Source: Clostridia bacterium
Lineage (GTDB): Bacteria; Bacillota; Clostridia; Christensenellales; Borkfalkiaceae
Direction: 5' to 3'
Assembly: GCA_021203865.1 (NCBI GenBank)
Contig: JAJQAJ010000061.1
Coordinates: 1 to 24,000, forward strand
Length of the DNA: 24,000 bases
The position numbers and the translations under genes were made by a program. The notes under the pieces were generated by a model. It was not told the origin of the DNA, searched no databases, and was given only the letters and a program-made list of their open reading frames with translations. Positions 74-11,889 of the stretch are shown one piece after another. How positions within the stretch are numbered: position 1 is the stretch's first letter; every line of letters begins with the position of its first letter.

Positions 74-1174
74 TCAAGCGTTATTTCCCGTGCGCACGGG
101 CAAAATGAGATAGAGGGCGTCCTTGTTTTCCTCGCCCTGACATATGAACGGCTGAATGGGGGTGTTGAACTTCATCTCCACCTTTTCCTCCTCCATGGCG
201 CTGAGCGCCTCCGTGATGTAGCGCGAGTTCATGGCGATTTGTAAATCCTTTCCCGTGACCAAAGCCGGAACGCTCTCGTCCACGTTTCCAATCTCAGAAG
301 TCGAGGTTATCTGTATTCTGTCTTCGGTGATGTTGAAGATTATCAGACAGTTTTTTTCACCCCTCACATACACTGACGCTCTTTCTATGCTATTTTTGAG
401 GGTTTCTCTTTCACACACGACAACCGTTCCGAAATCCGACGGAATGATGTTCTCTTTTTTAATGAAGTCACCGGAATAGAGACGAGACGTCACGACAGTG
501 TCGTCAGTGTTCACAAGGATGTGATTTTTTTGCATGTAGATGGTCGTTTCATACCCCGCGAGCATTTTGTCAATCTCATTGAGCGTCCGCGCGGGACATA
601 CTATTTCGTTTTCACCGGATGACTCGGCTATTTTCATGTTGTACGTCGCGAGACGAAAACCGTCAATCGCCGTGACGTCAGCTTCGTTTTCCCTGAGAAG
701 AATCTGACATCCCTTGAATATGGGTCTTGACTCATCCGTGGCGCAGCAAAATGTTGTTCCTTCTATTGCCTTTTTGAGAAGCGCGGTGTTCACCTTGAAA
801 TAATTCTCATTGATGTCCGTGTCAATCACAGGAAAATCCTCTGATGACATTGTCTGAAGATCACTTCTGTTCTTTCCGTAAGATATGGTCATCTTTCTGT
901 CCGTCGCGACGAGCGTGAGTTCAAGTCCCTCGAGTTTTTTGACAAAATCGGCAAAAAACCTCCCCGGCACACAGGTCGAACCCTCTTCCAGTATTTCGGC
1001 TCTGACCTTTTTCATTATGAAAATTTCCCCGTCTGTCGCCGACAGAGAGAGACTATCGTTTTCCGCTGAAATTTTGATGCATTCCATCACGGGAACCGGC
1101 GTCTTCGTCGCGCAGGCTTTCACCACTCTTGAAACCGCTTCCGACAAATTTATTCCTTCACAGATGACCTTCAT
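74..1174 (-). CDS. dnaN: DNA polymerase III beta subunit (sliding clamp)
   Basis: 366-aa ORF with the length and three-domain layout of a beta clamp (MKVICEG...LSEAV..V.KA...K...P.L..I...A; C-terminal LILPVR). SD GAGGTG lies 4 nt upstream of the ATG at 1174. Confidence 0.93.
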   Translation of the reverse strand: MKVICEGINLSEAVSRVVKACATKTPVPVMECIKISAENDSLSLSATDGEIFIMKKVRAEILEEGSTCVPGRFFADFVKKLEGLELTLVATDRKMTISYGKNRSDLQTMSSEDFPVIDTDINENYFKVNTALLKKAIEGTTFCCATDESRPIFKGCQILLRENEADVTAIDGFRLATYNMKIAESSGENEIVCPARTLNEIDKMLAGYETTIYMQKNHILVNTDDTVVTSRLYSGDFIKKENIIPSDFGTVVVCERETLKNSIERASVYVRGEKNCLIIFNITEDRIQITSTSEIGNVDESVPALVTGKDLQIAMNSRYITEALSAMEEEKVEMKFNTPIQPFICQGEENKDALYLILPVRTGNNA

Positions 1175-1560
1175 GCTTCACCTCAAAAAATGTTTTTGTC
1201 CGACGCCGTCCGCTTGTGCCAGACATCATTTTTTTATTTATAGTTTTTTTTCTGAAATTAGTTTTTAATAAGGTGCTGTTGAAATGTGCAAAGCGACAGC
1301 CGTCGAGCTAAACAATATATATATGTTATCAAAAATGGTGACATTTTGCAAGAAATAAAGCCCGCAAAGCAGGAATTTTGTCGTTGTAAAATAAGGGTTG
1401 GAGGTGGAAGAAAATGTTCAGAATTGGGGAAATTGTTGACAGAGCAAAATCACTGCAAAGTAGGGAAGGCAACTTTTGAACTTTCAAAACAACGCTTGGG
1501 CCAAATTAAACAAAAGACTGTGTTTTTGTTGAAAAATTTATTCAACATTTCTACAAGCCG

Positions 1561-1589
1561 TTGATTAAAAAGATTAGTTTTGGTAAGAT
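1561..1589 (+). promoter_or_regulatory. Sigma-70-type promoter directly abutting the rsmG start codon (leaderless arrangement)
   Basis: -35 TTGATT (1561-1566), 17-nt spacer, -10 TAAGAT (1584-1589). The ATG at 1596 lies 7 nt after the -10. No SD is present. Confidence 0.4.
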
Positions 1590-1595
1590 AAATAC

Positions 1596-2282
1596 ATGAA
1601 ATTTGTTGACATAAAAAGTGAAGTTATTGAAAAACATAAAAAAGAGTTCGATGAATATTATGATTTTTTGATGACGGAAAATTCCAAATACAATCTCACC
1701 GGAATAACCGAAAAAGAAGACGTGTTTATCAAACATTTTGAAGATTCACTTGCGGGCGCAGAATTTTTACCTCAATGCGCCTCCGTTTTGGATGTGGGTT
1801 CCGGAGCCGGTTTTCCAGGCATTCCTCTTGCCATTGTTCGGCGGGATCTCTCTGTTTTCCTCTTGGACGGTAACGGAAAAAAATGCCGGTTTCTCTCCTC
1901 CTGTGTAGAAATGTTGAATCTTTCCGGTGTAAAAGTTGTCTGCGGCCGGGCTGAGGAGGCCGCCTCGGAGGATTTCCACAGAGAAAGGTATGACGCCGTA
2001 TTGTCAAGAGCCGTGGCCCCACTTCCTTCTCTTTTGGAGCTTTGTCTTCCGTTCGTCAAAATAGGGGGAGTTTTTCTTTCATACAAGGGAAAGTGTGTCC
2101 GGGAGGAGATAGAAGCTTCTTCTTCTGCCCTGACCCTTCTCGGTGGTAAAATAGCCGGGGTCCACCCCTATGTTCTTGACGGAGGCTTTGGCGAGAGATC
2201 TCTCGTTGTTATTGAAAAGATTTCACCCACACCTTCCAAGTATCCAAGAGGCAGGGGTTTGGAAAGAAAAAAGCCACTATGA
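1596..2282 (+). CDS. rsmG: 16S rRNA (guanine527-N7)-methyltransferase RsmG/GidB
   Basis: 228-aa ORF with NLTGI...HFEDSL and the SAM-binding motif LDVGSGAGFPGIPLAI, both typical of RsmG. Confidence 0.9.
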   Translation: MKFVDIKSEVIEKHKKEFDEYYDFLMTENSKYNLTGITEKEDVFIKHFEDSLAGAEFLPQCASVLDVGSGAGFPGIPLAIVRRDLSVFLLDGNGKKCRFLSSCVEMLNLSGVKVVCGRAEEAASEDFHRERYDAVLSRAVAPLPSLLELCLPFVKIGGVFLSYKGKCVREEIEASSSALTLLGGKIAGVHPYVLDGGFGERSLVVIEKISPTPSKYPRGRGLERKKPL

Positions 2283-2355
2283 TTTTTTGTGTCACGTCCC
2301 TTTCCGGGGCGTTTTTTTGTTCATGCGTTCCATCTGAAATTTTTCGTGGGCTTCG

Positions 2356-2619
2356 TTATCAACATTTTATCTACATTTTTGTAGCACTCTGTTTTTATTA
2401 TTTCTTTTTTGTGGATAAACTCCGCAATGATTTTTGTTTGTAAGCGGCCAAATTCCGGCCCAGGTTCCGGTTTTGCTAATTTTATGTCTAAAATTTGCTT
2501 TCTAGAGCGAATTTACATACCTTTCGCTGTTGTTTTGGTGGAAAATTACCGTGAAGATTACTTTTAGTCTTCCGATTTTTTATCCACATTTTCCACAAAC
2601 AAATAACCCTCCATCCACA
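2356..2619. promoter_or_regulatory. DnaA-box cluster (oriC-like or DnaA-box cluster region)
   Basis: Perfect TTATCCACA at 2580-2588, and on the reverse strand at 2410-2418 (tgtggataa). One-mismatch boxes: TTATCAACA 2356-2364, TTATCTACA 2367-2375, TTTTCCACA 2589-2597. Two-mismatch box CCATCCACA 2611-2619. AT-rich tract at 2365-2410. Confidence 0.6.
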
Positions 2620-2652
2620 ATTTCAACGCAAAAGTGTAATTTTTGCGTTTAT

Positions 2653-2668
2653 GGTTTCACGTGAAACA
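2653..2668. promoter_or_regulatory. parS-like ParB-binding palindrome
   Basis: ggtttcacgtgaaaca matches the Firmicutes parS consensus TGTTNCACGTGAAACA at 15 of 16 positions. The 14-bp core gtttcacgtgaaac is a perfect palindrome. Confidence 0.7.
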
Positions 2669-2693
2669 AAAAAAGACAAGATTCATCGATGAA

Positions 2694-2709
2694 GGTTTCA
2701 CATGAAACA
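2694..2709. promoter_or_regulatory. Second parS-like palindrome
   Basis: ggtttcacatgaaaca: same arms as the first site, with one change in the central dinucleotide. Confidence 0.6.
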
Positions 2710-2853
2710 GTAAAAAACCCACCTAAAACGTGGTAGCGCAATGGTTTTTTAAGGCTTCCGGGTCCGGCTTCTTCTGGCTTATTTTCCCGTTTCCGTCTAT
2801 GTGAAAAAAAAGTAAAAAATAAGTGAATAGCGCAATGTGACAATAAAAAACAG

Positions 2854-2883
2854 TTGTAACATGGGCGGTCGGTATGTTAAAAT
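2854..2883 (+). promoter_or_regulatory. Possible ftsH promoter with extended -10
   Basis: -35 TTGTAA (2854-2859), 18-nt spacer, TGT-TAAAAT (-10 at 2878-2883). Confidence 0.3.
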
Positions 2884-2934
2884 TATCCCATTGACCATTA
2901 AGGCGTTTTGCCGGAAATTTAAGGAGCATAAGTT

Positions 2935-5082
2935 TTGAGTAGAAGAGGTAAAATCATCCTTTGGGTGGTTATAGCGGTGATAATCGTAGCCATTTTGGTG
3001 TCTATAATCGTCTCCTCGCTCAACACCACCACGACGATAGATTTTGATGAGTTCGTAAAACGAGTCGAATACGGCACGCTCTATGAAACCGACGGATACA
3101 TAGATCTTGACGGCAATGTGCTGTACGATGACGACGGAAAGGTTCTTAAAGACCCGAGTGGCCTGGAAGAGGATACTTATGAGTCGGCACCCGTCACAGG
3201 TTATGACGGCTGGATTCTCGCCCCGGAAGATTATGAGAACTGCGTTGTGGATTACGATGACTACGGCGTCAAGACCATATACTACTATTCGTCTGACGGG
3301 TCGGGTTCGGGTAAGATTTCGACCATCGTTTACATGGAAATAAATCAATACACCTTTAACGGATACGTGTACAACAGTTCCGGCCGGCTTGTCAAAACGT
3401 ACAAGGCGATAGGCCCGTCTCTTTACTCCGCGGATTCGCTAAACAGCGACAGCATAGCGGCGTTCTGGATGACGCAGGGTATAGGAATCAATTTCAGCAA
3501 CCCCAATTCGGGTAGTTACTGGTCGACGATAATATCAATCGTCGCGATGATTATCATAATTGTGATTTTCTGGCTCATTATGCGTTCGTCGATGTCAAGC
3601 GGCGGGCGCGGAATGAGTTTCGGCAAATCCAAGGCCAAAGTGACCACGAACGTCAAGGTTCGTTTCACTGATGTCGCCGGTGCGGATGAGGAAAAGGTTG
3701 AACTTGCCGAGGTTGTTGAATTCTTGAAATCACCCAAAAAATTCAATGATCTGGGTGCCCGGACCCCCAAGGGGGTGCTCCTAGTTGGCCCTCCGGGAAC
3801 AGGCAAGACGCTTTTTGCCAAGGCGGTCGCGGGTGAGTCCGGTGTCCCCTTCTTCTCGGTATCGGGTTCTGATTTCGTTGAATTGTATGTCGGCATGGGA
3901 GCGTCGCGTGTGAGAGATCTCTTTGACATGGCGAAGAAGAGCGCGCCCTGTATCGTCTTCATAGATGAGATTGACGCGGTCGGGCGTCAGCGTGGAGCGG
4001 GGCTCGGCGGCGGAAACGATGAACGCGAGCAGACATTGAACCAGATTCTCGTGCAGCTGGACGGATTTGAATCAAGTGACGGCGTGATTGTCATGGCCGC
4101 GACCAACCGTGCGGACATACTGGATCCGGCCCTCATGAGACCCGGCAGATTTGACAGGCAGGTTTACGTCAATCTTCCCGATGTCAAAGGAAGGGAGCAA
4201 ATCCTTAAAGTGCACGCACGCAACAAGCCTCTCGCCGAGGATGTCAATTTCAAGACGCTCGCCAGGATAACTGCCGGATTCTCCGGCGCGGATCTCGCCA
4301 ATCTTCTCAATGAGGCTGCCATCCTCGCGGCGAGGAACAATAAAACTTTAATAGGGAACACGGAGCTTTACGAGGGCGTGAACAAGGTTCTTATGGGACC
4401 GCAGAAGAAATCTCGGGTTGTGACCGAGAGCGACAAGAGAATAACTGCCTATCATGAGGCCGGCCATGCGATTGTCGCCAGACTTTGTGAGTTCTGTGAT
4501 CCGGTTCAGGAAGTGTCCATCATTCCCCGCGGAAACGCTGCCGGCTACACGATGACCCGTCCCGACACCGATGATATGCATATGAGCAAGAGAAAGATTC
4601 TTGACTTTATCTGCATGGCGCTTGGCGGACGTGCCGCCGAGGAAATTGTCATCAAGGACATCACGACCGGTGCGAGCAACGACCTCGAACGCGTCACGGA
4701 TATGGCCAAGCGGATGGTCACTGAATGGGGAATGAGCGATAAACTTGGACTCATAACGTATGGTTCAAACTCACAGACAGTCTTTCTCGGAAAGGACATG
4801 GAAACGCATAATGCGTACAGTGAGGAAACCGCGCGGACGATAGACGAGGAGATGCACGCTATTGTCGACGATGCTTACACCAGGGCTAAACAGCTTCTCA
4901 CGGATAACAGAGCGGTTCTGGACAACATGACGAGAGTCCTTATTGAGAAGGAAACCATCTACTCGGATGAAGTCGACATGCTCATGGAAGGCAAATCTTA
5001 TTCGGAAGTGATTGCGGCCATGGAAGAGAACGAGAAATCATACGCCGGTAATCCTTTCAAGAGATACGAACAGAGCAACTGA
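2935..5082 (+). CDS. ftsH: ATP-dependent zinc metalloprotease FtsH (TTG start) with an enlarged extracytoplasmic domain
   Basis: 715 aa. Walker A GPPGTGKT, Walker [12 protein letters not shown] region, Zn motif HEAGHA. Two hydrophobic TM segments at about aa 8-28 and about aa 197-216. AAGGAG lies 9 nt upstream of the TTG at 2935. Confidence 0.95.
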
Positions 5083-5098
5083 TTTACAGGGTGTTATC

Positions 5099-5863
5099 AT
5101 GACTAAGGTCGTTGCCTTCACAAACAAAAAAGGCGGAGTCGGCAAGACAACCACGGCGATAAACATGGCGGGTTACTGTACGAGTTTTGGGAGTCGCGTG
5201 CTCATAATTGACATGGATTCCCAAGGAAACGCCTCAACGGGGCTGGGACTTTCAAAAAGTTCCCTTAAAAAATCCGTCAACGCTGTTTTGTCGGAAGGTG
5301 ACAAGGCGTCCAACAATATTGTAAAAACAGATTACAAAGGCCTTGACATTATGCCCGCCAACGTCGATCTTTCCGGAGCCGAAGTATCTCTCGTTTACAA
5401 GAGGGATCGCGAATCGCTTCTTCGTAAAGCGTTGGAAGAGGTTAAGGACGATTATGACTTTGTTTTCATTGATTGCCCTCCTTCACTTGGGATTCTGACC
5501 ATGAACGCCTGGGTCGCTTCTGATTCCATAATTATTCCCATACAGTGTGAATATTACGCGATGGAAGGGGTGTCTCAGCTCATGAACACGGTGCAGCTTG
5601 TTCAGAAGCATTTAAACCCAGATCTTTTCATAGAGGGTGTTGTGCTCACGATGTATGACGGCAGGGCACTTATTTCCAAACAAATAGCCACCGAACTTAG
5701 GAAGTTTTTCAAGGAAAAACTGTACGAGATTATTATACCGAGGAACATCAGACTCGCGGAGGCCCCGAGTTATGGCATGCCCATAATCGCCTATGATCCC
5801 AAATGCGTGGGAGCCCGGGCGTATAAGGCTCTTACAGAGGAGTTTTTGTCTAAACAAAAATAG
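5099..5863 (+). CDS. soj: Chromosome partitioning ATPase ParA/Soj
   Basis: MTKVVAFTNKKGGVGKTTT is a deviant Walker A motif. An internal ATG at 5099 was chosen because the tracked ORF start at 5012 would overlap the 3' end of ftsH. Confidence 0.93.
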   Translation: MTKVVAFTNKKGGVGKTTTAINMAGYCTSFGSRVLIIDMDSQGNASTGLGLSKSSLKKSVNAVLSEGDKASNNIVKTDYKGLDIMPANVDLSGAEVSLVYKRDRESLLRKALEEVKDDYDFVFIDCPPSLGILTMNAWVASDSIIIPIQCEYYAMEGVSQLMNTVQLVQKHLNPDLFIEGVVLTMYDGRALISKQIATELRKFFKEKLYEIIIPRNIRLAEAPSYGMPIIAYDPKCVGARAYKALTEEFLSKQK

Positions 5864-5876
5864 GAGTGAGATTACA

Positions 5877-6794
5877 ATGGCACGAGGATTAGGTAAAGGA
5901 TTTGACAGTTTGCATGAAGAAACGTCGAGAGCGTACGATAACATGTACGATGGCAGCGGAGATGTTTTTTCGTACACCGAGGAGGAAAGACAGAACGCTT
6001 CGGATGTTCCTCTTGAAAAAATCTGTGTGAACACCAACCAGCCGAGGAAAAATTTTGATGAGCAGGCACTCAACGAGCTCGCTGATTCCATAAAGAAATA
6101 CGGAGTCATAATGCCCATTGTCATAAATGACAACGGTGACGGCACATATCTGATAATTGCCGGAGAAAGGCGTTTTCGTGCGGCGACAATTGCGGGTCTT
6201 GCCTCCATTCCCGCGGTCATAAGAAATTATTCCCAGCGCGAAATAAATGAAATTTCTCTCATAGAGAATCTTCAAAGAGAGGATCTTAACCCCATTGAAG
6301 CGGCGACCGCCATGAAGCAGCTGATGGTTGAGTACAAGCTTACCCAGGATGAGCTCGCGGAAAGGATAGGTAAATCCCGTCCCGCCGTGGCCAACACATT
6401 GAGGCTCTTGAATCTTACACCAGAGGTTATTGAAATGGTCAAGGAGGGTAAAATTTCGTCGGGACACGCAAGAACCCTTGTGCCGCTGACCCCCGAAGAC
6501 CAGGTTGATTTTGCCAAAGAGGTCCTTAAATCCGGGATGACCGTCAGACAGCTTGAAAAGAAGGTCAGAGCGCACAATATTCCCGTGGACGATGTTGAGG
6601 CTCGCAGGCAAAAGAAGAAGCAGCTTATCTCCATAGAACTAAAAGCTCTTGTTGACAGAATGAGGGCGACGTTCCGAACCAAGGTTTCTCTCATTGGGAC
6701 GGACAAGAAAGGTCGGATATACATTGATTATTATTCCAAGGATGACCTTGACAGGCTTTCAGAGATTATGGATATTGTTGACAGACAAAAGTGA
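5877..6794 (+). CDS. spo0J: Chromosome partitioning protein ParB/Spo0J
   Basis: MARGLGKGFDSL N-terminus, GERRFRAA arginine patch (CTP-binding ParB box) and an HTH region. SD GGAGTGAG lies upstream of the ATG at 5877. Confidence 0.93.
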   Translation: MARGLGKGFDSLHEETSRAYDNMYDGSGDVFSYTEEERQNASDVPLEKICVNTNQPRKNFDEQALNELADSIKKYGVIMPIVINDNGDGTYLIIAGERRFRAATIAGLASIPAVIRNYSQREINEISLIENLQREDLNPIEAATAMKQLMVEYKLTQDELAERIGKSRPAVANTLRLLNLTPEVIEMVKEGKISSGHARTLVPLTPEDQVDFAKEVLKSGMTVRQLEKKVRAHNIPVDDVEARRQKKKQLISIELKALVDRMRATFRTKVSLIGTDKKGRIYIDYYSKDDLDRLSEIMDIVDRQK

Positions 6795-6814: not shown

Positions 6815-6982
6815 AGGGCCCGGGCAGGATGTCCGAGCCCATCTTATTGGTAGAGAAAAAATATGGTGCATAAATATTAATAAAGAGGCGCTTTAATTGA
6901 AAAGGCTGCATGCCCGCAAAAAGTTAGAAGACTAACTATGCGTAAAATCAAGCACGTGGTCCAATCTGGCAAGGAGGATGAC

Positions 6983-8359
6983 ATGACAAAAGAAGAAATA
7001 CAAAAGCTCATAAAATTACAAAAAGAGCAGACTTTATCCCTTCCTCCCGTTTCCGTGAAGGAGCGGGTTGAAAGGCTGACAGGGCTCGCCAGAAGCATCA
7101 GATTGCACGAGGAGGAGGTTTATGACGCCCTTAAAAAAGACCTGAATAAAAGCCGTGAGGAAGCTTACATGTGCGAAATAGGCGGGGTTCTGGGGGAAAT
7201 TGCCTATATGAAGAAACACGTTAAGAGTTTCGCCATGGCGAAGAGGGTTCACACAGGTCTTGTGAATTATCCCGCAAAAAGCTACATCCGTCCCACTCCG
7301 ATGGGATGCTGCCTTGTCATGGCACCCTGGAATTATCCTTTTTTACTGTCCCTTGAGCCCCTTGTTGACGCCCTGGCGGCCGGGAACACCGCCATTCTTC
7401 GTCCGTCATCCTCAGCGCCTCATGTGGCGGCTGTGCTGGAAAAAATCATAAGCGAGGCGTTTGATGAAAAAATAGTCAAAGTGATAATTTGTGACCGGGA
7501 CACGGGAACTTTTCTCATGGAGCAGGACTTTGACAAAATCTTTTTCACGGGAAGCCCCACCGTCGGGAAAGAGGTGCTGAGACATGCTGCAGAGCATTAC
7601 ATTCCCGTGACGCTTGAGCTCGGGGGTAAGAGTCCCTGTGTTGTTGACGCTTCCGCGGACATAAAACTCTCCGCGAGGCGAATCGTGTTTGGAAAGCTTC
7701 TCAACGCCGGCCAGACGTGCGTCGCGCCGGATTATATATATTGTGAGGCGTGTATGAAGGATGAGCTTGTGGAGGCTCTGATAAGCGAAATTAAGGCACA
7801 GTACACGGATAACCCAATGAAAAACGAGTCTTTTCCCAGAATAATCAATCAATCGCAGTTTGACAGGCTCTCCTCGTATCTTGATCCCGAAAAAATAATT
7901 TACGGCGGAAGGACTGATGAAAAGAATTTGAAAATAGAGCCCACAATCTTAAATGCGGAATTTACCGACGACGTCATGAAAGAGGAGATTTTCGGACCAA
8001 TCCTTCCGATTGTCACATATGAAACGTCGGATGAGGCGGTTCGCATTATAAACGGGAGACCGACGCCGCTCGCACTGTATGTTTTCGCGAAAGACAAAAA
8101 GGTTCAGGAAAAATTTATGAGCAGCTGCGAGTTCGGAGGCGGATGCGTGAATGACACCATCATGCACCTTACGGGGTCAACGTTGCCTTTCGGAGGGCGC
8201 AGGCAGAGCGGCATGGGTTCATATCACGGTAAAGCCGGATTCGATGCTTTTACGCATTACAAAAGTGTCCTCAACAAATCCGTCAGAATAGACATGCGGC
8301 AAAGATACATGCCTATTACGGAAAAGAAGATGAAATCAATAAAACGCTTTTTGAAATAA
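6983..8359 (+). CDS. NAD(P)+-dependent aldehyde dehydrogenase (class 3-like ALDH family)
   Basis: Catalytic motifs ELGGKSP and GQTCVAPDY, EEIFGP, about 458 aa. AAGGAGG lies upstream of the ATG at 6983; the ORF is open from 6938. Confidence 0.85.
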   Translation: MTKEEIQKLIKLQKEQTLSLPPVSVKERVERLTGLARSIRLHEEEVYDALKKDLNKSREEAYMCEIGGVLGEIAYMKKHVKSFAMAKRVHTGLVNYPAKSYIRPTPMGCCLVMAPWNYPFLLSLEPLVDALAAGNTAILRPSSSAPHVAAVLEKIISEAFDEKIVKVIICDRDTGTFLMEQDFDKIFFTGSPTVGKEVLRHAAEHYIPVTLELGGKSPCVVDASADIKLSARRIVFGKLLNAGQTCVAPDYIYCEACMKDELVEALISEIKAQYTDNPMKNESFPRIINQSQFDRLSSYLDPEKIIYGGRTDEKNLKIEPTILNAEFTDDVMKEEIFGPILPIVTYETSDEAVRIINGRPTPLALYVFAKDKKVQEKFMSSCEFGGGCVNDTIMHLTGSTLPFGGRRQSGMGSYHGKAGFDAFTHYKSVLNKSVRIDMRQRYMPITEKKMKSIKRFLK

Positions 8360-8452
8360 AACCGTGGAAGCGCTGCCCGAGGGCGGGAAAAAAAGTTTGC
8401 AATCCTGCTGGCGCCGTTTTTTGAATAGGGCGCAAATGTTTCCGGAACGACG

Positions 8453-8476
8453 AAAACCCCGACGAGTCGGGGTTTT
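8453..8476. terminator. Bidirectional intrinsic terminator shared by the ALDH gene (+) and the tnpB/repeat transcript (-)
   Basis: aaaa-ccccga-cgag-tcgggg-tttt: a 6-bp GC stem with a tetraloop. The flanking A-tract and T-tract give a U-run on both strands. Confidence 0.75.
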
Positions 8477-8882
8477 ATAGTGAGTCGCATGTTCTTGATA
8501 TTCTTCCTGGCAGAGCAAAAAATTGCTCATTGAGGCGTTGAAGGAATCTCCGTCCGCTTCCGGATATCTGACGGTACGGTGCGACTTCCGGTTTCCCGGT
8601 GACCCACGTCGCACGGGGTGGGATGTATAAAGCAGGTCTCTTGGTATTACTTCCTGTTCAAGCAAAGGTTTGCTCTTGAGGCGTTGACGGAATATCCGTC
8701 CGCTCCCGGATACCTGACGGTACGGTGCGACTTCCGGTTTCCCGGTGACCCACGTCGCACGGGGTGGGATGTATAAAGCAGGTCTCTTGGTATTACTTCC
8801 TGTTCAAGCAAAGGTTTGCTCTTGAGGCGTTGACGGAATATCCGTCCGCTCCCGGATACCTGACGGTACGAACATTGTTCAA
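8477..8882 (-). ncRNA. Candidate TnpB-associated omega/reRNA-like structured transcript, multi-copy scaffold
   Basis: Occupies the position downstream of the tnpB 3' end where TnpB guide-RNA scaffolds lie (a canonical omega RNA also overlaps the ORF 3' end, which these repeats do not). Minus-strand reading gives GTGCGAC-GTGGGTCA-CCGG-GAAA-CCGG-AA-GTCGCAC (GNRA-capped), CCGTC...GACGG and GAGCAA-ACCT-TTGCTT (G-U closing pair). Ends at the terminator at 8453-8476. Confidence 0.5.
8503..8870 (-). repeat. Tandem direct repeat with a 146-bp period and 2.5 copies, directly downstream of tnpB
   Basis: 8579-8724 and 8725-8870 are identical at 146/146 by hand alignment. 8503-8578 aligns to the tnpB-distal 75 nt of the unit (plus-strand 8650-8724) with 11 mismatches and 1 indel. 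Weaker similarity continues to about 8487. Confidence 0.95.
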
Positions 8883-10100
8883 TTAAAAGTTATGTCCGGT
8901 TGACGTCTCAGCTGTTTTGAGTTGCCTAAGACCGATGTTCCGGATGTTTATGGCGGCGTTCACGTCCCTGTCTAGAACGGTTCCGCATTTCGGGCACGTC
9001 CATCCCCTAATTTTCGTGCTCTTGTATTCGTACTCTTTTCCGCAGACATGGCAGCAATATGTTGTCTTGGTGTATGCGGGAATGTAGGATACAACTTTCC
9101 CTGTCAAAAGCGCCTGATGTTCGAGCATGGAGCGAAAATGGTCAAACGCCGCATTGTAGACGGCGGTCCTCCTTCCTTTTCCGGGTTTGTCAGACTGTTT
9201 TCCTTTGTCCCCCAGGGCCATGTCTTCCATGCTCACGGTTTCAAGAAAAATATAGTCATTTTCCTCCAAAAGTTTGTGAACTTCCTTTCTCAGAAAGTCC
9301 TTCCGGGAATTTATGATTTTCTCTTCAACTTTGGCGAGTTGCAGGACAATCTCTTTCTGATTCGCGGAGCCTTTCTCGGTTTCACTGAGTTTGCGTTGCA
9401 AAAGCTTGCGTTTTTTCTCCAATTTGGGGAATTTACCCGTGTATTCCGGAGAATGACCGTTGCTGTCTATGTAAAGACGGTAAGGGCTGTAGTCCAAACC
9501 TATTGCTTTTTTCTCATCCAGAATGAGGGGTTTCGTAGCAATTTTCTCATAAATGATGTCAAGGAAGTATTTCCCGGTCCTTGTTTTCTTAATCCGGATT
9601 TTCTTAATGGTATTCACGTTCGGAAGAGGCATGTATTCCTTAACCGTCAGCTCCCCGATTTTAGAAACATAGACGTGCCTTGGATCGCAATATTTGATTT
9701 TCGGATATTCCGAACTATTGTTATCCATGCTCATGCAGTCGATTTGATATGCCTCCTTCGTTCGGGGCAGCAATTTCTCGTCACGAGTAGTCAGGAACTC
9801 ATCAAAGGCGCTTTGCAGCATGTAGGTGGCATTCTTGTAAACGGAAAAGTCCGTTTCTTTCAGAAAGGCGCAGTTTGGACGATTTAAATAGTCCATGATG
9901 TAGGGCACCTTGTTCAGGTCGCGGTTTGACACCTGCGGATCGTTTTTATGTTTCTCGTAATATGCGATTTTGTCTGCTAGAATCATATTCCAGACGACGG
10001 AGGTGTTGAAAAACCATCGGTCCATCAGTTCCTTTTGTTCGGTGTTGGGAAGAAGGAGACATGAAGCCGTGGTTATGCATTTGTTTACTGTATTTTCCAT
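8883..10100 (-). CDS. tnpB: TnpB-family (IS200/IS605 OrfB) RNA-guided endonuclease-like protein; RuvC triad apparently intact
   Basis: 405 aa. RuvC-I AIGLDYS, RuvC-II IFLETVSMED, Zn finger CCHVCG...CPKCG, RuvC-III DRDVNAAINI. AGGAG lies 8 nt upstream of the ATG at 10100. No Y1 or serine recombinase gene is adjacent. Confidence 0.9.
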   Translation of the reverse strand: MENTVNKCITTASCLLLPNTEQKELMDRWFFNTSVVWNMILADKIAYYEKHKNDPQVSNRDLNKVPYIMDYLNRPNCAFLKETDFSVYKNATYMLQSAFDEFLTTRDEKLLPRTKEAYQIDCMSMDNNSSEYPKIKYCDPRHVYVSKIGELTVKEYMPLPNVNTIKKIRIKKTRTGKYFLDIIYEKIATKPLILDEKKAIGLDYSPYRLYIDSNGHSPEYTGKFPKLEKKRKLLQRKLSETEKGSANQKEIVLQLAKVEEKIINSRKDFLRKEVHKLLEENDYIFLETVSMEDMALGDKGKQSDKPGKGRRTAVYNAAFDHFRSMLEHQALLTGKVVSYIPAYTKTTYCCHVCGKEYEYKSTKIRGWTCPKCGTVLDRDVNAAINIRNIGLRQLKTAETSTGHNF

Positions 10101-10162
10101 TTCGTTAGCTCCTAAATGTTTAAGTCCTTAAAAAAATTTGATTTTTGTTCTTTACATGTACC

Positions 10163-10191
10163 ATTATAACACGGGGAATGGGACATTTTTG
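10163..10191 (-). promoter_or_regulatory. Possible tnpB promoter with extended -10
   Basis: Minus strand reads TGT-TATAAT (plus 10163-10171). The -35 is weak (CAAAAA, 17-nt spacer). Confidence 0.35.
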
Positions 10192-10388
10192 GGACGCGCA
10201 ACAAAAATTTCTAAATTTTTTGAAAAAAATTGAAAAAATTTTTTTTCATGTGCCGAGGGAGAAAGAAGAATCGGATGGCACTAGGTCTCTCAATCGTGGG
10301 ACAAGTATAACATGGTGATTTCGGGATTTGGTCAACCGCAAATTGACAAATGAAAAATTTTTCAAGATCTTTGTCCAGAGCAAAACGC

Positions 10389-10456: not shown

Positions 10457-10530
10457 GGCGTCATAGCCAAGCGGTAAGGCACGGGTCTGCAAAATCCTAA
10501 CCCCCGGTTCGATTCCGGGTGACGCCTCCA
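10457..10530 (+). tRNA. tRNA-Cys (GCA)
   Basis: 74 nt. Acceptor ggcgtca/tgacgcc, anticodon loop ct-GCA-aa, T-loop ggttcgattcc, encoded CCA. Confidence 0.93.
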
Positions 10531-10548
10531 AAAACATGTGTGCGAAGT

Positions 10549-10587
10549 ACGGTAGACAAAGAGAAGAAATTCAGCCTTGTCTACCGT
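10549..10587. other. Perfect 11-bp stem hairpin between tRNA-Cys and tRNA-Leu
   Basis: acggtagacaa (10549-10559) and ttgtctaccgt (10577-10587) with a 17-nt loop. No adjacent U-run. Confidence 0.4.
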
Positions 10588-10714
10588 TATGCACAAAATG
10601 TTCAAAGGTTGTGTTTTGGCATGTGCGTGTCGAACGGGAAAAATCAAATCATATTTTTTGTTGATGTCGATAGCATTCAATGCTGATTTTCATGGCGTAA
10701 ACGAAGAAACCATT

Positions 10715-10801
10715 GCTTGTGTGGCGAAATCGGCAGACGCAAGGGATTTAAAATCCCTCGGGAGCGATCCCGTATCGGTTCGAGTCCGATCACAAGCACC
10801 A
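10715..10801 (+). tRNA. tRNA-Leu (TAA), class II with long variable arm
   Basis: 87 nt. Acceptor gcttgtg/cacaagc, anticodon loop tt-TAA-aa, variable arm cgggagcgatcccg, T-loop ggttcgagtcc, encoded CCA. Confidence 0.93.
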
Positions 10802-10803
10802 GT

Positions 10804-10841
10804 AAAATCGGGGCAGAAAGCAGTTTTCCCCGATTTTTTTT
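10804..10841 (+). terminator. Intrinsic terminator after tRNA-Leu
   Basis: atcgggg (10807-10813) pairs with ccccgat (10828-10834), followed by T7. Confidence 0.8.
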
Positions 10842-11073
10842 GACTAAGTGAAGATGTAAATTATAGCAAATAAATGTTGACGTAAATAACGTTTTGTTGC
10901 ACGGTGTCGCAGAAAAGGCTTACTGGAAAGGACTTGCCAATGACGTTATTTGTAATAGTGTTTTAACCGGCGAATGCGCGGCTAATTGGTTGTGTTGAAT
11001 GGTTTCTGACAGGCGGTTTTTGTCATGGTTGCTCACAATTTTTTGCTTGCTGAAAAATTAGTTGTGAAAACGC

Positions 11074-11102
11074 TTGCAAAGCGTCGTAAAAAATGGTAGG
11101 AT
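11074..11102 (+). promoter_or_regulatory. Promoter for the tRNA-Val/tRNA-Gly unit
   Basis: -35 TTGCAA (11074-11079), 17-nt spacer, -10 TAGGAT (11097-11102). Confidence 0.45.
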
Positions 11103-11113
11103 GTAGGGCAGAT

Positions 11114-11189
11114 GGAAGCATAGCTCAGTTGGGAGAGCGTCTGCCCTACAAGCAGAGGGTCGCAGGTTCGAGACCTGCTGCTTCTACCA
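11114..11189 (+). tRNA. tRNA-Val (TAC)
   Basis: 76 nt. D-arm gctcagttgggagagc, anticodon loop cc-TAC-aa, T-arm gcaggttcgagacctgc, encoded CCA. Confidence 0.92.
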
Positions 11190-11251
11190 TTTTTTTACGA
11201 CGCACTTACTTTATTTCTAGCATGTTTGTCGCATGATGAGTAGTGTGTTTC

Positions 11252-11286
11252 GCCGCGACCCCCGCTCTGCCATTGAGCTAGGCCGC
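11252..11286 (-). pseudogene. Inverted tRNA-like remnant: acceptor and D-arm fused to the variable/T-stem 5' half, with no anticodon arm
   Basis: Minus strand reads GCGGCC-TAGCTCAATGGCAGAGC-GGGGGTCGCGG. It parallels the adjacent tRNA-Gly (GCGGGAATAGCTCAGTGGTAGAGC...GGGGGTCGCGGG) minus the 17-nt anticodon stem-loop. No matching 3' half is present. Confidence 0.4.
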
Positions 11287-11290
11287 ATGT

Positions 11291-11365
11291 GCGGGAATAG
11301 CTCAGTGGTAGAGCATCACCTTGCCAAGGTGGGGGTCGCGGGTCCAAATCCCGTTTCTCGCTCCA
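11291..11365 (+). tRNA. tRNA-Gly (GCC)
   Basis: 75 nt. D-arm gctcagtggtagagc, anticodon loop tt-GCC-aa, T-arm with tccaaatcc loop, encoded CCA. Confidence 0.92.
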
Positions 11366-11437: not shown

Positions 11438-11593
11438 GGCGAGAAACGAGATTCGGTTTATAAAGCTTGCTTCATGAAAGGGAAGCCGTTTGACAACATT
11501 TCATTTATGTCAGGACAAATATTATTTCACCGTAAAATTGTCAACTGAAACTGATGATTTCTAAAAGCAGAACAAAATTATTGCGATTTTGCC

Positions 11594-11622
11594 TTGACGG
11601 AAAAATTCTAATTTGTTAAGAT
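11594..11622 (+). promoter_or_regulatory. trp operon promoter
   Basis: -35 TTGACG (11594-11599), 17-nt spacer, -10 TAAGAT (11617-11622). Confidence 0.55.
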
Positions 11623-11628
11623 AAGGAA

Positions 11629-11889
11629 AATTGAATACGCAAATAAACCATGGATGCAGAAAAAAGACGAAATGAGATCTCACAGCGAGTGCGGGGTGGT
11701 GAAAGCCGCATGGATGGGTTTCGTGTAATATGGGCTGCGGAGGGCGGCGTCAAATGCGCCGACGTGAGGCACGCGTAAAGTGGCAGGGAATGATGGTTCC
11801 CCCGAATGAGGACGACTTCGGTCGTTGAAGCAAGGTGGCACAGCGTAAAGAATACGCCCTTGACAAGTAACATTGTCAAGGGCTTTTTT
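11629..11889 (+). promoter_or_regulatory. T-box riboswitch leader with Trp (UGG) specifier and terminator/antiterminator
   Basis: Stem I distal elements AGCGAG-tgcgg-GGTGGTGAAAG-ccgca. UGG triplets at 11711-11713 and 11715-11717 on the 3' side of Stem I. T-box sequence AAGGTGGCACAGCG at 11832-11845. Terminator gcccttgacaag/cttgtcaagggc plus T6 at 11856-11889. Confidence 0.85.

Follow-up and report, generated by a model that had tools for sequence, protein, structure and literature searches.

A tandem array of omega-RNA-like modules beside an apparently single-copy, chromosomal tnpB gene in a Clostridia bacterium

The tnpB gene and its array of repeated units

The window analysed here is a stretch of 24,000 nt from a Clostridia bacterium (Christensenellales; Borkfalkiaceae), corresponding to positions 1-24,000 of contig JAJQAJ010000061.1 in assembly GCA_021203865.1. 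On its minus strand the window harbours a gene for a TnpB-family nuclease, tnpB, followed by three structured modules that are organised in tandem and resemble omega-RNA scaffolds. We favour, with moderate confidence, the explanation that these modules are the omega-RNA array of a chromosomally fixed, single-copy and catalytically intact TnpB, formed by duplication of whole units and presumably expressed.

A single array was detected in the window with Tandem Repeats Finder (8493-8870, period 146, 2.6 copies, 94% matches). Its first unit begins 12 nt past the tnpB stop codon. Units 1 (8870-8725) and 2 (8724-8579) of the minus strand are identical at 146 out of 146 positions, and unit 3 is 83% identical to unit 1 over the first ~88 nt (75/90). 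The layout of core, tail and hairpin occurs three times over, and the array is closed by an intrinsic terminator composed of an 11-bp perfect inverted repeat and a T-run, which matches the terminator portions of Rfam models and was missed by a crude consensus terminator scan. This agrees with a first-pass annotation of the same DNA, which had described a 146-nt head-to-tail repeat on the tnpB strand, separated from the stop codon by 12 nt, free of overlap with the open reading frame (ORF) and placed ahead of one shared, bidirectional terminator at 8453-8476. The third copy, described there as diverged (~85%) and partial, is diverged but holds the whole structured core and is no fragment.

The duplication is present in the sequencing reads. 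The independent Logan assembly made from run SRR15221294 stops 30 nt inside unit 1, exactly where a graph with k=31 breaks if the start of the unit has two different predecessors. The number of identical units is at least two, a count whose exact value short-read assemblies do not fix.

The tnpB product possesses the domains HTH_OrfB_IS605 (PF12323), OrfB_IS605 (PF01385) and Cas12f1-like_TNB (PF07282), all above the Pfam cutoffs, and matches the NCBIfam model guided_TnpB with 163 bits (cutoff 100). For the active site, the protein was aligned with the ISDra2 TnpB structures 8bf8, 8exa and 8h1j; the motifs GLDYS, FLETVSMED and DRDVNAAINI pair with the catalytic motifs GVDVG, GTEHL and DRDENAALNI of ISDra2 TnpB (8bf8/8exa). 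Both the RuvC D/E/D triad and the CxxC...CxxC zinc finger are intact, so that the structure alignment, Pfam and NCBIfam bear out the hallmarks that had been read into the 405-aa minus-strand ORF. We take the three ISDra2 motifs to hold the catalytic residues D191, E278 and D361. From its sequence, the nuclease looks catalytically competent.

The protein is ~30-35% identical to classical IS605-type TnpBs and is a small IS605-like protein on a long branch. Among 5.8 billion protein clusters, its relatives are itself and one 53%-identical protein from the Clostridia metagenome-assembled genome (MAG) GCA_021203845.1, the rest being at most 35% identical. The protein alignment reveals the D/E/D triad also in the 53%-identical homologue. 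LaTranC is matched only over the C-terminal RuvC and zinc-finger part (E = 5e-9).

Conserved RNA structure of the module

Five non-identical modules from two genomes, those of the window and of the locus of the 53%-identical TnpB (L001), were combined in alignment A2, from which the covariance model R1 was built. A2 contains five helices with 22 pairs. In total 95% of its cells are paired, compared with 34-49% when the partner columns are slid, and compensatory changes are present in 10 of the 22 pairs, at a mean column identity of 73%. The long-range helix covaries in all five of its pairs, reading GGUAU/AUACC in modules 1 and 2 of the window, GAUAU/AUAUC in module 3, and GGCGC/GCGCC plus a CGGA/UCCG variant in L001. 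The six strong copies score 83-94 bits with R1.

Module 1 possesses, in this order, a stem-1 hairpin around the pseudoknot 5' strand GGUAU, two internal hairpins, the motif AGGAAG, the 3' strand AUACC and a conserved A. Most of the differences between modules 3 and 1 are located in loops; the others include one compensatory pair, one change from G-U to G-C and one disruptive change. Single-sequence folding by minimum free energy (MFE) also proposed a local hairpin UACC/GGUA, which was dropped: a G-to-A change in module 3 breaks it while being compensated in the long-range helix, and the substitutions of module 3 and the sequences of the homologue support only the long-range helix.

These covarying helices support the view, expressed already in the first-pass annotation, that the repeat represents a real, structured RNA module, placed like an omega-RNA scaffold. 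No family for the module was found in Rfam, either at gathering thresholds or at E<=10, where only weak chance-level matches and terminator fragments appeared. The scaffold is a new sequence family and would be a new omega-RNA structural family absent from Rfam.

Conservation drops directly after the pseudoknot 3' strand and the conserved A. The segment behind this boundary, the variable tail, is found where ISDra2 carries its guide (PMC10097598). Between the units of the window, scaffolds are more conserved than tails (83% versus roughly half).

Behind each tail comes a hairpin, which in the internal units of the window is the CCCAC/GUGGG hairpin (T), whose loop pairs downstream to form the S0 helix that adjoins the next module. 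The S0 helix is 96% paired with two compensatory pairs among four sequences, which gives it modest support, and the T hairpin is suggestive only, as its register shifts between sequences. Pairwise alignment places the T hairpin of units 1 and 2 opposite the terminator hairpin of unit 3. In position, the hairpin found directly 5' of module 1 corresponds to the S0 hairpin between modules, and analogous hairpins adjoin every module in both loci.

Table 1. Features of the tnpB locus, in window coordinates and in the order of the minus strand
Feature	Position	Strand	Description and basis
Candidate extended -10 promoter of tnpB (TGtTATAAT)	10161..10171	-	Read from sequence, inferred
tnpB ORF	8883..10100	-	405 aa including start; stop codon 8883-8885; Pfam, NCBIfam, structure alignment
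Hairpin directly 5' of module 1 (CGGACAU...AUGUUCG)	8869..8898	-	Spans the stop codon; MFE fold of 8440-8900
Module 1, omega-RNA-like scaffold core	8788..8870	-	Alignment A2, pair counts, covariance model R1 (93.6 bits)
Variable tail 1 (candidate guide) AGAGACCTGCTTTATACAT	8769..8787	-	19 nt; conservation falls after the pseudoknot strand
Inter-module structured linker 1	8725..8768	-	T hairpin CCCAC/GUGGG and S0 helix GUGCGAC/GUCGCAC adjoining module 2
Module 2	8642..8724	-	Identical to module 1; R1 93.5 bits
Variable tail 2	8623..8641	-	Identical to tail 1
Inter-module structured linker 2	8579..8622	-	Identical to linker 1
Module 3, diverged scaffold core (83%)	8496..8578	-	R1 92.3 bits; GGUAU/AUACC changed to GAUAU/AUAUC
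Variable tail 3 (candidate guide) AGAACATGCGACTCACTAT	8477..8495	-	19 nt
Bidirectional intrinsic terminator AAAACCCCGAC-TC-GTCGGGGTTTT	8453..8476	both strands	Closes the array; downstream of the convergent aldehyde dehydrogenase gene

Two ORFs of 109 aa (8336-8665) and 54 aa (8647-8811) run through the array on the minus strand. Repeated non-coding sequence is their most likely source, which would make them artefacts, and in annotations they could be mistaken for genes. Another observation concerns the last codons of tnpB and the linker behind them (AACTTTTAATTGAACA, 8876-8891), which resemble the 3' half of the second hairpin of the module (AACCTTTGCTTGAACA, 8801-8816 and 8655-8670) with 81% identity over 16 nt. 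The likeness may be due to chance or may be left from an earlier scaffold copy that overlapped the end of the ORF.

A homologous locus in a second genome

Similar to the window, L001 in the MAG GCA_021203845.1 carries module copies behind its tnpB, which correspond by homology to the window unit's first ~88 nt. Three of them are strong (83-91 bits with R1) and one is degenerate (17 bits). Several copies are thus present at both known loci, three in the window and three to four in L001. In every well-preserved unit of the two loci a tail of 17-21 nt is followed by a hairpin, as in unit 2 of L001 with GCCGUU/AACGGC, and the last unit ends in an intrinsic terminator in L001 as in the window. Because the hairpin is equidistant at two genomic sites, the tail is internal to the conserved unit, unlike the arbitrary flanking DNA of a mobile insertion sequence (IS).

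The degenerate copy (1535-1623, plus strand) is located between the strong copies 2 and 3. It retains its own preceding hairpin (GGGCAAC/GUUGCCC), and therefore units can decay in place.

Both tnpB genes are upstream of trp promoters and T-boxes that are homologous to each other, at a distance of at most 2 kb, and the TrpE proteins of the two hosts are 71% identical. A tRNA cluster is present between tnpB and the trp leader in the window only, not in L001. Common descent of the two loci at the trp site, with vertical inheritance and rearrangement, is plausible but unproven.

Proposed function of the array

Under the favoured explanation, tnpB would be transcribed from its own promoter, and the transcript would run on through three complete guide-RNA genes. 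An AGGAG ribosome-binding site for tnpB was read within 10098-10114, and the candidate extended -10 promoter given in Table 1 was not listed by a consensus promoter scan. Each guide-RNA gene would consist of a 5' hairpin, a core of ~83 nt with a TnpB/Cas12-type pseudoknot, a single A, a tail of ~19 nt and a hairpin, which in the last unit would act as intrinsic terminator. TnpB would attach to every scaffold and trim the transcript in the way that ISDra2 TnpB trims its own mRNA, and the resulting ribonucleoproteins would carry two different tails in the window genome and three to four in the genome of L001. In the simplest history, the array would have arisen by tandem duplication of the whole unit of scaffold, guide and terminator, with the internal terminators converted into non-terminating hairpins. 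What favours duplication in place is the match in alignment between the internal hairpin and the last unit's terminator. We infer the transcription and processing of the array, its loading onto TnpB, the action of the tails as guides and the existence of targets for them.

The results argue that scaffolds of at least two types are maintained in the window, and of three in L001, with guide function as a prediction. The first-pass annotation had suggested a multi-scaffold guide-RNA array as a possibility. The omega-RNA-like structured modules stand, but the guide part is overstated: because tails 1 and 2 are the same, no more than two distinct guides are encoded in the window.

Several results weigh against this explanation. 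The identity of tails 1 and 2 is one of them, since it may reflect a recent, neutral duplication. A further point is that the first ~10 nt (AGA(G)AC(C/A)TG) are common to tails 1 and 3 and to tail 2 of L001, a stretch that may be residual scaffold or may mean that the tails are diverging copies of common descent. No target of any tail was found in the window or in L001 at up to three mismatches. A search of IMG/VR with 18-mers of the tails gave 0-2 exact matches, none of which extends past 18-19 nt, and by a rough estimate they look like chance matches. The covariation comes from five sequences, and two loci are known; if mobile copies that had already diverged supplied the units, the compensatory differences could be older than the tandem arrangement. 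One unit of L001 is decaying, so not every copy is maintained, and the two loci are oppositely oriented relative to trpE.

Alternative explanations

Some of these points are shared by the strongest alternative, possible if rather doubtful, in which the array is a neutral by-product. The right end, or omega-RNA, of an immobile or decaying solo tnpB (IS1341-type) would have been duplicated by slippage or unequal recombination, and one scaffold, the first or the last, would be used while the rest are passengers. A recent and possibly unselected duplication is expected to leave units that are 100% identical including their tails, as units 1 and 2 are, and both the degenerate unit of L001 and the lack of targets for the tails of the window and L001 fit this explanation. 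However, module 3 and the three strong modules of L001 are well diverged, yet all of their helices are kept through compensatory or loop-restricted changes, and multiple copies are present in both known loci.

The first-pass annotation had named as main alternative tandem insertions of mini IS200/IS605 elements similar to palindrome-associated transposable elements (PATEs), which have a left and a right end and no ORF; these would have inserted beside the right end of a tnpB element and been mobilised in trans by a TnpA encoded elsewhere. Standalone mobilised omega-RNAs do exist (PMC10691335), and the inter-module hairpin region could in principle be a left end. This alternative found no support and is improbable. 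No TnpA was found in the 24-kb window. The inter-module segment lacks similarity to the region upstream of tnpB (score 20, shuffles 18.6 +/- 2.9), its similarity to the 3' end of tnpB is not significant, and no related hairpins, and no hairpin sequence in common, were found between the tnpB upstream region and the array, that is, between the putative left and right ends. Moreover, the same kind of hairpin adjoins module 1 in or next to the end of the ORF, where no left end is expected, and the alignment of the internal hairpin with the last-unit terminator favours duplication in place.

Dispersed copies with target-site signatures would be characteristic of such mini-elements, and none were found in scans of genomes and metagenomes, which include MAGs that can lose repeats. 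A pattern fitting all six copies matched the L001 contig only, in a search of one genome for each of 185,579 species. Other pattern matches in genomes and metagenomes were singletons, with less than 20 bits in R1 where reported at all, which is chance level. No dispersed module copies were found in the MAG of the homologue, although MAGs can lose repeats. The array had no match by blastn in phage and plasmid collections, where tblastn with TnpB returned nothing above 31% identity. The TnpB protein cluster has one member on one contig and the assembly is continuous through both flanks, although MAGs are incomplete. A mobile IS200/IS605/IS1341 element was likewise rejected as identity of the locus, given that TnpA is missing from the window, the ends share no related hairpins and the tail is inside a conserved unit.

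Quite improbable is also a regulatory or decoy RNA array, in which the extra scaffolds titrate TnpB or control the stability of the tnpB mRNA instead of guiding cleavage. The scaffolds are in the 3' untranslated region of that mRNA, and identical tails bring no new targeting capacity. Nevertheless, a ~19-nt tail and a hairpin recur in this layout from unit to unit and in both genomes, with tail sequences that vary, as in guides, and the nuclease is intact. Finally, an assembly artefact behind the perfect duplication is very unlikely: copy number is poorly determined in a short-read MAG with an exact 146-nt repeat longer than typical k-mers, but the junction of the linker into a module-1-type start (GGTATCC) requires at least two such modules, the independent Logan assembly stops at the expected boundary of k-1 = 30 nt, and neither the diverged module 3 nor the several copies at the homologous locus are affected by this question.

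Comparison with known systems

For RpoE-associated, nuclease-dead descendants of Cas12f1, omega-RNA arrays derived from duplication of "the entire omega-RNA" have been described; CRISPR-like arrays that have long repeats (>60 bp) and resemble omega-RNA arrays accompany the related Cas12f1 and V-U40-43 groups, and standalone omega-RNAs working in trans have also been described (Altae-Tran et al., PNAS 2023, PMC10691335). Similar to those arrays, the window contains whole scaffolds with their tails tandemly duplicated downstream of an apparently non-mobile tnpB-family gene, with repeats above 60 bp. The boundary between scaffold and tail, directly behind the pseudoknot strand, may be as sharp as in those arrays, but tails 1 and 2 are identical and ~10 nt at the 5' end are common to the tails. 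Unlike the whole-omega-RNA arrays, where RuvC is inactivated and RpoE is associated, the window locus encodes an intact triad and has no RpoE or Xre neighbour. It also differs in possessing a new scaffold family and a hairpin or terminator after each tail.

The ISDra2 scaffold has 116 nt, with a pseudoknot between positions -5 to -3 and -105 to -103 (stem 1 loop) and a single A (-1) before the guide, and omega-RNAs without overlap with the ORF are already known (PMC10097598). TnpB is reported to process its own mRNA into omega-RNA (PMC10278001). The window locus shares with the canonical IS200/IS605 TnpB-omegaRNA system of ISDra2 (Karvelis 2021; Nakagawa 2023) the domain architecture, the catalytic residues and a scaffold at or after the 3' end of tnpB. 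As in ISDra2, the pseudoknot 5' strand is located in the stem 1 loop, enclosed here by a CCG/CGG hairpin, and the 3' strand plus one A directly precede the guide, or candidate guide. ISDra2 carries a single scaffold, its guide lies outside the element in the DNA that flanks it, TnpA is its partner, and it occurs in multiple copies; the window locus has three scaffolds, an internal tail in a hairpin-ended unit, no TnpA in the window, no recognisable ends and apparently a single copy.

Module 1 starts where the ~34%-identical TnpB relatives place a classical single omega-RNA, 12 nt after the stop codon. The module itself was looked for in these relatives (L014-L018) and in a viral relative (L022); R1 gave no match, and a classical single omega-RNA ending in ...GTGGGAG.ATGTCAC was found there.

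TranC systems are published intermediates between TnpB and Cas12, with repeats of 32-38 bp and an RNA split into trans-activating CRISPR RNA (tracrRNA) and CRISPR RNA (crRNA). The window locus is similar to TranC and to compact type V systems (Cas12f/V-U) in having a TnpB-sized RuvC effector and an array downstream of the gene. In contrast to the short repeats and separate tracrRNA of TranC and Cas12, the repeat here is an entire, unsplit scaffold of ~83-127 nt in a 146-nt unit, which rules out a type V CRISPR or TranC identity. Like PATEs and standalone mobilised omega-RNAs, the units bear a scaffold without an ORF, but PATEs are dispersed and flanked by transposon ends, while the units of the window are strictly tandem beside tnpB and were found nowhere else in the scans. 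TldR proteins are domesticated tnpB relatives at a fixed locus with a fixed guide RNA, to which the locus is similar with its candidate guide RNA; TldRs lack the RuvC catalytic residues, and identity with them was rejected, as D/E/D is intact in both homologues.

The first-pass annotation had set this locus apart from known ones. Its iterated scaffolds hold, but its novelty is smaller than proposed there, as the arrays of PMC10691335, the TranC intermediates and the non-overlapping omega-RNAs of PMC10097598 had already been described. On the favoured explanation, the locus is a rare natural example of an omega-RNA array, a type that earlier publications had outlined, and no new class of system.

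Models of how type V CRISPR originated derive arrays from serial duplication of omega-RNA segments and place TranC at a later stage with split RNA. Tentatively, the locus could represent a pre-CRISPR stage, in which an active TnpB that has lost its mobility is inherited vertically beside trp across genus-level divergence and uses several fixed, unsplit omega-RNA genes with terminator-derived hairpins in an innate multi-guide system that serves defence or the maintenance of the genome. Its array would grow by duplication of whole units, followed by divergence of the tails. If this is true, a nuclease-competent TnpB with tandem whole omega-RNA genes is a natural example of the stage before TranC, a view based on conservation in two diverged genomes and on tails that evolve faster than scaffolds. 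It would also be a compact natural design for multiplexed guides from a single transcript, with an effector of ~405 aa and a scaffold core of ~83 nt. If only one unit is used, the array is a locally duplicated right end, mainly of interest to annotators.

Genomic context

The gene order around the array is dnaN, rsmG, an ftsH-like gene, parA, parB, aldehyde dehydrogenase, tnpB, four tRNAs, a T-box, trpEGDCFBA and polyamine genes. Positions 74-6794 of the window contain an origin-proximal set encoding dnaN, rsmG (GidB), an FtsH-type AAA protease, parA/soj and parB/spo0J. As the array is flanked by this set from dnaN to parB, it is located in the core chromosome near oriC.

The nearest homologue of the aldehyde dehydrogenase (6938-8359, plus strand) is 55% identical among the 5.8 billion protein clusters. 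Because this best match is so distant, the host belongs to a very sparsely sampled lineage of Clostridia, and for this reason comparators are few and the aldehyde dehydrogenase neighbour offers no empty-site comparison.

On the other side of tnpB, an AT-rich near-palindrome (10191-10254, 31-nt arms, 74% complementary) is present in the intergenic region from which tnpB and tRNA-Cys diverge. Its possible identities are an operator, the remnant of a transposon left end and simple low-complexity promoter DNA. The tRNA cluster (10457-11365, plus strand) comprises Cys-GCA, Leu-TAA, Val-TAC and Gly-GCC. T-box leaders precede trpE in the window (11642-11864, plus strand, 76 bits) and in L001 (1988-2215, plus strand, 75 bits), with scores below the Rfam gathering score of 93, yet with E about 1e-16. 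Just upstream of each T-box there is a homologous TTGACG promoter, at 11591-11642 in the window and at 1935-1987 in L001.

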